Below are positions 24,001-27,000 of a stretch of DNA of 64,000 nt, in pieces. The stretch is from the NCBI GenBank assembly GCA_045047115.1, contig JASFYR010000009.1:1-64000 (forward strand). The letters run 5' to 3'. The position numbers were made by a program. Each line of letters starts with the position of its first letter. Position 1 is the first letter of the stretch. Source of the DNA: Sulfurospirillum sp. GTDB taxonomy: Bacteria > Campylobacterota > Campylobacteria > Campylobacterales > Sulfurospirillaceae.

Positions 24001-27000
24001 ATTTAGCATGTAAGTTGCCTTTTGTTTTTGAGCTTCTATGACAGTCACTACATCCACCACCTCTTGCAATTTTTTGATTTTTAAAAATTTTTTCATCTTG
24101 ATTGATATGACAAGCCGCGCAGAGTTTTCTAAAGTGGCTTTGTGCGAGCGAGATATTTGTATCTCCTCTTATGTCTGCTATGCCTATAGTTGAGTTCAAC
24201 TCTTTGCTTTCACCCCATTGGTATTTCAAAACATTTAGGATTCCACTTTGGGATTGCATCATGGATTTACTTACTCTTTTTATTATTTTTTTGTGGCACT
24301 TGATACAAAATATAGAGGCATGTTCGAGTCTTGCAGGGTTTAAAACCATGCCTTTGTGAGCATCTGCTTTGTCTGTTGCCCATCTGTTTCCGCCATGACA
24401 CGAGGCACAGCCAAATATCTCTTTTGGATGAGCATGGTCTATATCGCTCATATTGCTATGACAACTCATGCATTGGTCCGGTTTTGTCATCTTTGGAGTT
24501 TTTTTTATGCCGTTGGAAAAGATAGAATACACTAAAAGTGCTATAGATATAAGAGCTAGTATAAAGAGTATATTTTTATATTTCATAAACCAAAAACCGA
24601 TATATATGCATAAAACAAGAGCCAAAGAATCAAAAGAGTTTTGATGAGTAGCCTGTAGCTGGTAAAAATGTATAAAAAGAGGAATGCAAAAGGTATAAAA
24701 AGTATAAGATTTACACTTAAGGGCGATAGAGATTTCAGTAGCATATTTTCTGCACCTTGAAAAAACCAGGGGCTTGAGAGTGTGGTTGCTTTTTCGTTTA
24801 AATTTATATCGCTTGGCATATTTAGGGACACAATCGCTAAAACAGTGATGCCAAAGGCGATACTTAGATATTCGGTCTTTACATACAGAGTATCGATGTG
24901 TCTATATATCGCATATCCAAGCATAAGAGGTAAAAATAGTATATGCCAGATAAAAAACTTATAGTAAAAAACAGTATTGTCTTTAAAAAGTGATAAAAAT
25001 GAGTTTAAAACAGGAGTGTTTTTGATGAGGTTAAATGCTACTTCTGCTGCACCGTTTGCACTTAAATCTGCTTTTAGTACAAATCCGCTAAACATTAAAA
25101 TCACTACCGATGCAAAACCTAAAATTGAGTAAATCCAGGATTTATTTGTTATCTTGATTCTGGATTTGCTTAATTCAAGTAGAATATGCATTAAAAGAGA
25201 GATGGTAAATATTTCTGAGCTAAAGTAGTGTAGTTTTCTAAAAAATTCTCCATAAGGTATGAGAAAATTTATCTTTTGAACACTGGCAAATGCAGCTGAT
25301 GGATGATAGGCAAAGACTACTATAAGACCACTAAGCATACTAACAAAAAAGAGCCCAAGCGTAAGAAAGGATACAAATCTAGACATATCTACCCTATAAA
25401 AAGTTTATTATTTTTGATATTGAAAGCTATTTTATCCAAATCTCTCTGTGCCGGTCCTTTGATTCTGTAGCCATCTATCGTAAATTGGCTGTGGTGACAA
25501 GGACAAATAAACTTTTTTTTATCTTTGTAGAAGTTTAAAATACAGCCCATATGGGTACAGTGAGCATCAAAAACCTCTATTTTATCAGCATTTTTATAGA
25601 TAAAAATGTTATGTTTTTTTATCTTTGTGATTCCATCTTTTATATTTTTAGAAGAGATCCAAAACTCTTTATCTGTATCTTGACTAAAAAATATAAATTT
25701 TCCGATAGGATATGCCAAAACTCCTGCCATGGTATATGGCAGGAGTTTTAGAAATTTTCTTCTTCTATTATTCAACATTTAAAATTCAACATTCAACATT
25801 AAATTAACATCCCTCGAATTGAGCTCCACCACTAGCTTTTGGAGCTTGTGCAGCTGTTGTTTCGTCTATAAAAGTATTGAAATCTTTTATATCTCCATTG
25901 TCTGCCAATCTTTGTATAACATCATTATAATTTGCCCAAGCTGTTTTTTCCCAAGGGTTTGCTTGTACAGCTTTTTGAGCATATACTTTCGCAAGCGGTA
26001 AATTATCGTTGCTTACCATCTGTCTTGAAAGTTTAACATAGTGAGCACAAAGAACTTTATCCATACTGTAGTTTTGACTGTTTTGGGCACTAAGATTTAT
26101 ACCAAGTAACCCTAAAAGTAACCCTAGACCCATAACTGCGATGATTAGTTTTTTTATTCTCATTTTATTCTCCTAATAATTTACTGTGACATAATAGACA
26201 TTTGGTGATGTCCCTTCGTCCTCTTTTAGTTTAGCTATACTAGTAGCATCTCTTAACAATTTTGAAACATTGCTGTCTTTATCATTTAGATCACCAAAGT
26301 TTCTCGACTCCCCAACACAAGTTGCAACACAAGCCGGATCAAGTCCGTTTGAGATTCTAGGCAAACAGAAAGTACACTTATCGACTGACTTTTTCTCTTC
26401 ATTATAATATCTTGCATCATACGGACAAGCTACCATACAAGCCTTACAGCCTATACACATGTCAGGCTCAACTAAAACGATACCATCCTCATCTCTTTTG
26501 AAACTTGCTCCTGTCGGACAAACATCTACACAAGGTGCATTATCGCAGTGGTTACAGAGTGTAGGCAAAAAGCTGATAGTCGGATTTTTATGTACATCTT
26601 CACCCTCTACTACAAAAACCTTTGTTCGGTATGCCTCTTTCATGGCAGGCACATCCCAATCAGTTTTGCAAGCAACATAGCAAGCATTACAACCGATACA
26701 TCTATCTCCGACTATAACCATCGCTAGGTTTTTTTGTTTTTTTGTTTTTCTTTTTAATAAACTCATATTATGCCCTTACTATTTTTACAAAAGCATTGTT
26801 ATATGCAGCTGCTCCACTGAGCGGATCAACCCCATCACTGACAAACCAAACATCTTTAGTGCCTTTTTTGTATCCTCTAGTCCATCTTTTTGTTGTATGT
26901 CCAAAACCATGATGGATAAATACAGCTCCATCTTTCATTCTTTTGGTAACTTTTAGTCTTTCGCTATGAACTGATCTATGTCCCGTTTTTGCATCTACTA

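Follow-up and report, generated by a model that had tools for sequence, protein, structure and literature searches.

How is sulfur delivered to periplasmic reductases and to YeeE-type channels? In the available part of one study, candidate donors for the YeeE-like SoxT are only proposed (PMC11582611). The question is raised by a Psr-like molybdoenzyme operon of a Sulfurospirillum sp. (assembly GCA_045047115.1), in which the gene g00485 encodes a small exported protein ending in Gly-Cys. The operon lies in the window analyzed here, the first 64,000 nucleotides of contig JASFYR010000009.1. In a first-pass annotation, the protein was read as a swinging-arm carrier that holds its substrate on the terminal cysteine and presents it to the molybdoenzyme.

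A secreted TPR protein encoded in a Psr-like operon

The g00485 reading frame is preceded by an AGGAG located 6 nt ahead of its ATG and closes with FEGC-TAA; the FeS gene lies 9 nt before it and the Rieske gene 25 nt after it (Table 1). Promoter and terminator scans at the locus gave a signal at the level of shuffled sequences. The placement and architecture described initially (FeS and Rieske neighbours, signal peptide, TPR head, FEGC end) were all recovered; a second cysteine missing from that description, Cys39, is present in helix 1, 80 residues upstream of the tip cysteine. The head was modelled with a pLDDT of 87-98 (residues 31-90) and the tail with a pLDDT of 56-60 (residues 91-119). 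The head consists of a helix-turn-helix repeat with a cap helix, as in a TPR hairpin, and its structural match (Z 9.7, rmsd 1.5 over 55 residues) has a score of a size that can reflect a common arrangement. The g00485 profile matches consensus TPR proteins, and one family member matches TPR_2 at E 1.2e-4. As first stated, no Pfam family was assigned to g00485 (zero Pfam or NCBIfam matches at E<=0.01); Foldseek returned zero matches at E<=1e-3, Pfam, NCBIfam and Atlas gave nothing beyond generic TPR, and our literature searches returned no description of a Gly-Cys-tipped TPR family.

The molybdoenzyme of the operon is closest to PsrA/PhsA and is encoded with FeS, NrfD and TorD partners. The PhsA model scores it at 489 bits, below the cut-off of 694, and we assign it as a putative PsrA-like enzyme. 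All NCBIfam matches of the ext-like genes are likewise below the curated cut-offs.

Table 1. Positions in the window of g00485, its parts and the genes of its operon
Feature	Position	Strand	Description and basis
g00485	25804..26163	-	119-aa secreted TPR protein with Gly-Cys tip; ORF, homologues, structure model
Signal peptide of g00485	26086..26163	-	residues 1 to ~26; cleavage site inferred from sequence; helix 2-20 in model
Three-helix head of g00485	25900..26058	-	residues 36-88; one TPR hairpin and cap helix; model and TPR matches
Cys39 of g00485	26047..26049	-	second cysteine; common, dispensable in family
Low-complexity tail of g00485	25807..25899	-	residues 89-119; predicted disordered
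Terminal FEGC of g00485	25807..25818	-	Cys119, proposed carrier residue
PsrB-like 4Fe-4S subunit	26173..26766	-	Fer4_11
PsrA/PhsA-like molybdoenzyme	26768..29029	-	twin-arginine-like leader; closest solved sequence 2vpw, E 5.9e-142
NrfD/PsrC membrane anchor	29029..30177	-	family match
TorD-like chaperone	30174..30791	-	true start probably later; orthologues 175-181 aa
Secreted tandem rhodanese	30700..31641	-	proposed arm loader; weak ExtH match, E 3.4e-15, under cut-off
Rieske protein (ExtO position)	25389..25778	-	family match
Cytochrome b, ExtP-like	24583..25386	-	family matches
12-haem cytochrome c, ExtM-like	22829..24625	-	E 5.6e-81, under cut-off; 12 CxxCH
8-haem cytochrome c, ExtN-like	21561..22841	-	family match and haem-motif count

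The terminal cysteine is maintained by selection

All 43 close homologues end in EGC, as first reported (42 FEGC and 1 LEGC, query counted). A profile search with the family gave 25 matches at E<=1e-3 rather than the 29 announced; the prevalence of the Gly-Cys end held (22 of 24 short matches), the 25th match being a 293-aa repeat protein. The repeat protein P0067 and P0121, taken as a fragment, were left out before counting. Across the family an N-terminal signal-like segment is found, and the tail, predicted to be disordered, varies from 12 to 71 aa. The C-termini read xGC or xGCI (GCI in four paralogues). At the tip, Gly is encoded by each of its four codons, Cys by either of its two, and every one of the three stops occurs, and the entropy of the tail alignment climbs to 2.2-3.0 bits from position -11 inward. 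The EGC end was also kept at 75 of 77 Desulfobacterota-type loci, which had been found by patterns in the TPR part and not in the tail. Codon use, entropy and this retention indicate that the tip cysteine is selected at the protein level; g00485 is an exported protein in which a flexible acidic tail, ending in a cysteine under selection, follows the TPR head.

Of the 102 ORFs of 70-200 aa in this genome that look secreted, 4 end in Gly-Cys, the four small proteins already listed in the first pass, compared with none of 1682 ORFs of at least 150 aa. The binomial p of ~3e-6 for this excess is a rough figure: secretion was called by a heuristic rule, the motif was picked post hoc, and the four genes form two pairs.

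Five intact homologues, in two separate clades (P0054 and P0094; P0056, P0089 and P0091), have no tip and keep the TPR head, which implies a function for the head that does not depend on the cysteine. Their genomic context is given by a single locus, L150, where the psr operon also encodes a Gly-Cys-tailed ExtJ-like protein and a rhodanese. Since the family tree was a quick version (71 columns) that does not settle the deep forks, no order of events is claimed.

Family members adjoin Psr-like enzymes or YeeE channels

The family extends further than first stated, with members in Campylobacterota, Desulfobacterota and Deferribacterota-like loci. A survey of 401 Campylobacterota genomes found the FEGC gene in 6 and this PsrA subtype in exactly those 6 (6/6 both ways), and the six ExtM-sized matches detected in 151 genomes all have a TPR family member within the operon. 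With 33 partial TPR matches excluded (2 of them inspected), 14 of 14 full-length Campylobacterota matches end in GC or GCI; their genes come after psrB in 6 cases and after a split yeeE pair in 8. Pairwise comparison (E 3e-7; 26% over 84 aa) makes g00601 a paralogue of g00485, and one paralogue closes a complete sox cluster.

For Desulfobacterota, 80 of 87 relatives were kept and the weak TPR loci L144-146 were then removed, giving the 77 loci counted; 4 weak loci were excluded from a further locus search. Genes for YeeE (68 loci), DsrE-like proteins (50), TusA (48) or rhodanese (18) are present within 3 kb, at least one of them at 74 loci, counts that overstate independence because the loci share descent. 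Three cysteines of the neighbouring YeeE are kept in 59 of 61 cases; its best NCBIfam match, under the cut-off, is a selenium-linked YedE. Psr/Ttr-like genes are near 2 of the 77 loci, full flanks being available for 24 only, and Psr was rejected as a universal partner of the family. At L132 and L130, the YeeE module is joined to ExtM or Psr genes. Loss of the tip at 4 Desulfobacterota loci accompanies deletion or decay of neighbours. Prediction of a complex between one Desulfobacterota member and its YeeE, from paired 26-row alignments, scored 0.00 and is evidence neither way.

The proposed presentation of substrate to the molybdoenzyme thus fits only the Psr-linked clades; family-wide, the commonest neighbour is YeeE with TusA and DsrE-like proteins, or a periplasmic rhodanese, usually without Psr/Ttr. 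As the family almost always adjoins Psr-like enzymes, sulfur channels or sulfur transferases, its members probably hand sulfur between them through the last cysteine.

The same neighbourhoods bear on a structural or assembly role, in which the TPR head would hold a Psr-ExtM/ExtN or YeeE complex together and the cysteine would be an axial ligand of a partner haem or form a permanent inter-subunit disulfide. The persistence of intact tail-less members, one within a psr operon, is consistent with this, as is the overlap of the family gene with extM in two genomes. ExtN has 8 haems, yet just 4 spare His are invariant across 6 sequences, and in the part of a preprint available, DsrJ/DsrO have Cys/His haems and a ligand from another subunit (bioRxiv 10.64898/2026.08.25.746951). 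A further precedent is g00847, a haem-less relative of monohaem cytochrome c whose family has a near-terminal Cys; this family descends from cytochrome c, and its cysteine could ligate haem. The first pass had set g00847 aside as a neighbour that does not fit, and it is indeed of a separate kind. However, a complete multihaem ORF lies within 3 kb at only 1 of the 77 Desulfobacterota loci while the tip is kept at 75; ExtM has 9 invariant His and 3 invariant Met for its 12 haems; and a fixed ligand needs no tail of such variable length. We consider a structural role unlikely.

Possible chemistry of the terminal cysteine

Cys39 is present in 90 of 114 aligned family members, and several of those without it have another Cys inside or right after helix 3. 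The tip cysteine is nevertheless the sole one in 16 of 109 Gly-Cys-ended members; an obligatory Cys39-Cys119 disulfide was rejected and an internal disulfide is not general. The common second cysteine would suit a thiol redox helper that acts on persulfidated cysteines of rhodanese, YeeE or PsrA, reducing or unjamming them so that free HS- or polysulfide leaves, a role proposed for SoxS and for DsbA beside SoxT. The accessible part of PMC11582611 proposes that periplasmic thiol-disulfide proteins release sulfur for SoxT and is sceptical that sulfur moves directly from Cys to Cys within the channel. Against such a helper, the thioredoxin fold and CxxC motif are absent, 4 of the 6 Psr-linked Campylobacterota orthologues have a single Cys and no dedicated reductant is conserved beside the gene, which makes it quite unlikely.

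Metal or metalloid binding was also considered, the acidic tail and thiol holding Se(IV), As(III) or a soft metal to be delivered to, or removed from, the enzyme. In 103 of 109 members the final ten residues have a net acidic charge, the ext genes are annotated by NCBIfam as a selenite/tellurite reduction operon, and the selenium-linked match of YeeE points the same way. A lone thiol without conserved His or Met would however be a weak metal site, and the genes conserved nearby (TusA, DsrE, rhodanese and YeeE) encode sulfur-relay proteins. Replacement of the tip by selenocysteine was not seen: no TGA stands for Cys in the 77 Desulfobacterota-type and 14 Campylobacterota loci, and no stop lies inside the Campylobacterota matches or a further match set checked. 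Such a carrier is improbable; the best case for it is the PepSY-like pair g01254/g01255, whose operon adjoins a gene for a PhnD-like binding protein and genes that, read by eye, look like arsenic resistance. Finally, invariant motifs right at a C-terminus are sometimes sites of modification, but lipidation or cleavage of the cysteine to tether the protein is very improbable, given that no membrane segment follows it, GCI ends are tolerated and no processing-enzyme neighbour is conserved.

The Gly-Cys tail on other scaffolds

The three Gly-Cys loci grouped together in the first pass belong to two unrelated scaffolds, TPR (g00485 and its paralogue g00601) and PepSY-like (g01254/g01255). The GGC end of the g01254 family was confirmed in 34 of 34 homologues, 46-100% identical. 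Treating g00485, g01254 and g00847 as one family was rejected, their scaffolds being TPR, PepSY-like and cytochrome c-derived. All 17 ExtJ matches above the cut-off end in GC (QGC or EGC); six below it have no GC-ended ORF (4 with Lys-rich ends, 2 not called). Among 301 genomes, ExtJ and the TPR family occur in 39 and 12 with 0 shared (~1.6 expected, not significant), and no ExtJ match was found in any of the six Psr genomes. The same tail also occurs on rhodaneses.

It is conceivable, though we would sooner doubt it, that an acidic end with a final Gly-Cys serves as a transferable sulfur handle in the periplasm, added on separate occasions to TPR, ExtJ, PepSY-like, rhodanese and haem-less cytochrome scaffolds. 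It would stand in for SoxY in anaerobes without Sox, the scaffold only picking the acceptor, and the true substrate of Psr-type enzymes and YeeE/YTD channels would be a protein-bound persulfide, not free polysulfide.

A proposed periplasmic sulfane-sulfur carrier

We propose, with a probability of about 0.6, that g00485 is a periplasmic sulfane-sulfur carrier akin to SoxY and DsrC in action and a member of neither family, feeding Psr here and YeeE in other loci; it may carry selenium too. Selection on the tip, the disordered tail of variable length, the sulfur-relay neighbours and the recurrence of the tail on ExtJ and rhodaneses all argue for a carrier. The swinging arm first suggested is retained on these grounds, and its universal presentation to a molybdoenzyme is given up. 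Counted against a carrier are the tail-less homologues, the cytochrome c-derived Cys-tailed family, the scarcity of Psr/Ttr genes at Desulfobacterota loci and the selenium-linked YedE match. A further point against it is that S0 reduction is lacking in most Deferribacterota that have psr clusters (PMC6896113).

The terminal thiolate would be loaded with per- or polysulfide sulfur, supplied by the periplasmic rhodanese of the operon or taken straight from polysulfide. The TPR head would then dock on a partner and the tail swing its load into the acceptor site. In the g00485 operon, the acceptor would be the PsrA-like enzyme, which would reduce the S-S bond and release sulfide, with quinol electrons arriving from PsrC/PsrB and the Rieske-cytochrome b-ExtM/ExtN chain. 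For g00601 and most Desulfobacterota members, the acceptor may be the outer cysteine site of YeeE, with TusA and DsrE-type proteins receiving the sulfur next. In members that have it, Cys39 may form a ring or help to resolve the adduct, but it is dispensable.

The family provides a soluble ~10-kDa protein in which a single residue can be tested, and is tied to one Psr subtype and to most YeeE/YTD loci of the Desulfobacterota clade. If the proposal is true, a missing step is added to models of sulfur respiration, disproportionation and oxidation in three phyla, and genes that annotation calls hypothetical or PilF-like become markers.

Comparison with known sulfur carriers and gene clusters

SoxY has a beta fold and a C-terminal GGCGG motif. 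Like it, g00485 is periplasmic and has a candidate carrier cysteine ending a flexible C-terminal arm. SoxY-bound sulfane is the proposed source for the YeeE-like SoxT1A, in the available part of PMC11582611. In contrast to SoxY, g00485 does not match PF13501 (a real SoxY scores E 1.3e-29 in the same library), ends in FEGC, and has three helices, no beta fold and no SoxZ, its neighbours being psrB and Rieske genes; in the TPR family the Cys is last or next to last. The genome encodes its own SoxY with the GGCGG end.

The arm cysteine of DsrC is penultimate, as in the four TPR paralogues ending in GCI. DsrC/TusE is likewise small and helical, and its C-terminal arm is mobile (available part of bioRxiv 10.64898/2026.08.25.746951), and DsrC cysteines carry sulfur as a trisulfide (PMC6378623, in the part available). 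Unlike the cytoplasmic DsrC/TusE, g00485 is exported, matches no Pfam DsrC model (0 families) and has one arm cysteine instead of two; its second cysteine lies in helix 1 and is missing from 16 of 109 members.

Desulfobacterota loci resemble YTD clusters (yeeE-tusA-dsrEFH type II), with the TPR gene immediately before yeeE at 57 of 77 loci and tusA and dsrE-like genes after. The portions of the YTD literature available name no periplasmic donor. In the few rows of the PMC12998232 supplement compared by eye, CHP1-3 showed no TPR-family resemblance and no Gly-Cys tail, and CHP1 resembles a second DsrE-like cluster near TPR loci.

ExtJ (NF040942) of the Geobacter extHIJKLMNOPQS cluster is a small secreted protein whose function is listed as unknown in the part of PMC5877670 available, and ExtKL of that cluster is a polysulfide reductase (PMC13510729). 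g00485 shares with ExtJ its small size, export and terminal Gly-Cys, and an operon with a rhodanese and ExtM/N/O/P-like genes. It has a TPR head and belongs to a separate family: NF040942 matched neither g00485 nor anything in the genome (control ExtJ-like protein, E 2.6e-12), and one ExtI porin query gave no tblastn match in the genome at E<=1e-4. The terminal enzyme is a molybdenum PsrA-like protein here and the selenocytochrome ExtKL in Geobacter; g00485 would fill the role that ExtJ may have there, with the same tail on another scaffold.

Sud of Wolinella succinogenes is a periplasmic rhodanese that serves Psr and binds polysulfide on its catalytic-loop cysteine. Unlike Sud, g00485 has no rhodanese domain, and a separate rhodanese is encoded in its operon.

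The g00485 gene and its psr operon

The start of g00485 is preceded by a ribosome site 6 nt upstream, and the order on its strand is rhodanese, TorD, NrfD, PsrA-like, PsrB-like, g00485, Rieske, cytochrome b, 12-haem and 8-haem cytochromes. The nearest solved sequence to the PsrA-like protein is 2vpw (E 5.9e-142). The cytochrome b, 12-haem and 8-haem cytochromes distantly resemble ExtP, ExtM and ExtN of the Geobacter ext cluster, and there is a weak ExtH match for the rhodanese; none of these reaches its curated cut-off. In the neighbouring two-component pair the periplasmic domain of the kinase is Tll0287-like and contains a CxxCH motif; the kinase is a candidate sulfur or redox sensor. 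Long ExtM paralogues resembling the 767-aa protein of the window were found in 12 other genomes of 151.

Positions of the genes discussed (L, locus)
Feature	Position	Strand	Remark
g00485	window 25804-26163	-	119-aa ORF, between PsrB-like FeS gene and Rieske gene
Two-component pair	window 31728-33878	-	immediately upstream of psr operon
Multihaem ExtM paralogue, 767 aa	window 36754-40311		opposite two thioredoxin-like genes
Secreted monohaem cytochrome c	window 40954-41271	+	near-terminal Cys
g00847	L003:1008-1364	-	haem-less relative of monohaem cytochrome, behind second psr operon
Split yeeE halves beside g00601	L001:10197-11325 (G000:C9 ~158196-159324)		both frameshifted relative to intact orthologues
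TtrA-like operon before g01254/g01255	L002:3283-17262		
95-aa ORF	L138:12417-12704		behind tusA, ends FQGC
Rhodanese-like protein	L130:17242-17961		ends EEGC, behind psr and split yeeE genes
Five-haem ORF then 125-aa ORF	L205:5714-7489		next to ExtJ-like gene ending MEGC
ExtJ-like gene	L204:7438-7689		ends EGC, amid housekeeping genes
ExtJ-like gene	L206:7230-7436		ends EGC, amid housekeeping genes
ExtJ-like gene	L207:7643-7834		ends EGC, amid housekeeping genes

A TPR head with a Gly-Cys tip

Homologues of g00485 had been described in the first-pass annotation as ending invariably in EGC, and this held in the protein database (43/43). The accompanying profile search gave 25 hits rather than 29, and 22 of the 24 short ones ended in GC. 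The rarity of GC-ended small secreted proteins in the genome was also recovered (4/102 secreted-looking small ORFs versus 0/1682 large ORFs), with an enrichment (p ~3e-6) that is only rough because the motif was chosen post hoc and the four genes represent two pairs. In a model built on a 114-row alignment, g00485, which by its sequence carries an export signal, has a TPR-like head with confident helices at 36-51, 55-68 and 73-88, followed by a tail (pLDDT 56-60) that is predicted to be mobile. Among the 109 GC-ended members the tail measures 12-71 residues, consists to 83% of Ala, Pro, Ser, Thr, Glu, Lys, Gln, Gly and Asp, and is net acidic over its final ten residues in 103. Position 39 carries a second Cys in 90/114 alignment rows; the tip Cys is the sole one in 16 GC-ended members, including 4/6 Psr-linked Campylobacterota orthologues.

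Sulfur-relay genes surround the TPR family

Full-model matches numbered 14, in 11 of 401 Campylobacterota genomes, the remaining 33 matches listed being partial TPR matches; 10 ended in GC and 4 in GCI. Six lie directly after psrB and eight, including the paralogue g00601, after a split yeeE pair, where three precede a rhodanese and one ends a sox cluster. An enzyme-anchored search placed the PsrA subtype of the g00485 operon in the same six genomes as the psr-linked members, and among 151 genomes each of the six ExtM-sized matches shares its operon with a TPR-family member. Each half of the split YeeE retains one Cys. No second copy of the pair beside g00601 was detected by tblastn of the genome; these two frameshifted halves are pseudogenes or assembly errors. 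Two genomes of 1.5-1.6 Mb from another family (G028 and G077, loci L056 and L057) carry a complete rhodanese-psr-FEGC-extM-extN operon in which the Rieske and cytochrome b genes are missing, a patchy distribution suggestive of transfer or widespread loss.

Scanning a Desulfobacterota-type clade with patterns of the TPR part gave 87 relatives, of which 80 were kept and 77 were real. The EGC ending is found in 75/77 and is written with every synonymous codon for Gly and Cys and with every stop codon. A YeeE gene comes immediately next in 57; within 3 kb, Pfam-labelled profiles made from the 77 loci themselves detected YeeE at 68, DsrE-like at 50, TusA at 48, rhodanese at 18 and any of these at 74. 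Three cysteines are retained in 59/61 neighbouring YeeE sequences. Psr- or Ttr-like enzymes are near only two of the 77 loci (L130, L093) and ExtM near L132, full flanks being present in just 24. An HMM search of 301 genomes returned 12 members, two truncated and 10 ending in EGC, five of which precede yeeE and five a secreted rhodanese. At four metagenome loci, classed as Deferribacterota-like from Denitrovibrio labels and including the heavily frameshifted L148, the TPR gene lies directly behind psrABC. Secreted rhodaneses behind the TPR gene at L191, L192 and L195 have a Cys of their own seven residues from the C-terminus, and the clusters at L138 and L130 encode additional GC-ended proteins (table).

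The tip is under selection, and the neighbours are sulfur-relay genes. The TPR family is real and selected, and apparently undescribed.

Members without a tip, and other Cys-tailed proteins

Four Desulfobacterota members lack the tip: in two a deletion also took the greater part of yeeE, and the other two are truncated and lie in operons that appear decayed. Five further TPR proteins, in two clades, are intact and tail-less, with context known for one locus, L150. At this locus psrABC and the tail-less TPR gene are accompanied by genes for an ExtH-like rhodanese with a GGGC terminus, for ExtI, for an ExtJ-like protein whose last residues are LQGC, and for Rieske, ExtP, ExtQ and ExtS. Retention of the head without the Cys argues against a pure carrier, and availability of a second GC-tailed protein is consistent with one. 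ExtJ ends in GC in 17/17 matches above cut-off and in 24 of the best 30 loci. No ExtJ match was found in the six genomes with a psr-linked TPR gene; ExtJ (39 genomes) and the TPR family (12) share 0 of 301 genomes, where ~1.6 would be expected, a difference that is not significant. The ORF pair at L205 resembles split ExtK/ExtL in layout, and no sulfur operon was seen near the ExtJ-like genes at L204, L206 and L207.

The GGC ending reported for g01254 was found in 34/34 homologues, but all are close relatives, and its grouping with g00485 was not upheld: the predicted fold is PepSY-like, a separate scaffold. The TtrA-like operon before it is flanked by genes for a PhnD-like binding protein and a two-component system and by arsR-, arsC-, arsB- and permease-like genes identified by eye, which suggests arsenic rather than tetrathionate.

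Matches to g00847 occurred in 47/201 Campylobacterota genomes, with a Cys within the last two residues in 30/30 of the best loci; g00847 gave no Pfam or NCBIfam match. Its homologues include the monohaem cytochrome of the window (33% over 90 aa, E 6e-8), and haem-less copies still keep the Cys. Conversion of a His/Cys haem protein to a carrier is possible in this family. The same homology keeps alive the view that the TPR protein is a structural subunit whose tip Cys serves as a haem ligand or in a disulfide, although we regard it as unlikely.

A putative sulfane-sulfur carrier

We favour, with a probability of roughly 0.6, a role of the TPR family as sulfane-sulfur carrier. Cys119 would be loaded by the rhodanese or by free polysulfide, the head would dock the loaded protein on a partner, and the sulfur would be delivered to PsrA in the g00485 operon and to YeeE at other loci. 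The earlier proposal of substrate presentation to the molybdoenzyme is a plausible reading of this operon; for the family as a whole it is too narrow. After the structural subunit, a thiol redox helper is less likely still and a metalloid carrier is improbable. A processing site at the tip can hardly be entertained. As a carrier, the TPR family would be a new scaffold for a device of known kind.

Comparison with known systems

Neither the TPR family nor the ExtJ tail was described in the literature searched, which lay outside subscription papers (among them the original YTD paper on the yeeE-tusA-dsrE type cluster and the Sulfurimonas psrA1B1CDE study). The word tetratricopeptide occurs 0 times in each of PMC13293266, PMC12998232, PMC13490349 and PMC13047784. 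ExtKL is a polysulfide reductase required for S0 respiration (PMC13510729, where extJ occurs 0 times) and the function of ExtJ is given as unknown (PMC5877670). The comparison also covered PMC9676032, PMC10045233, PMC6896113, PMC6378623, PMC11896075, bioRxiv 10.64898/2026.08.25.746951 and the PMC12998232 supplement.

The proposed working of the TPR protein is like that of SoxY and DsrC, but it does not pass the family tests of either. With ExtJ it has tail and neighbourhood in common, whereas the sequence model is not matched. The YeeE neighbouring the TPR family has the same number of cysteines as the three-cysteine path of PMC11073785, and the halves of the split Campylobacterota YeeE have one Cys each, as do PmpA and PmpB in PMC11582611. 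The Desulfobacterota-type loci correspond to the published YTD arrangement with one extra gene in front.
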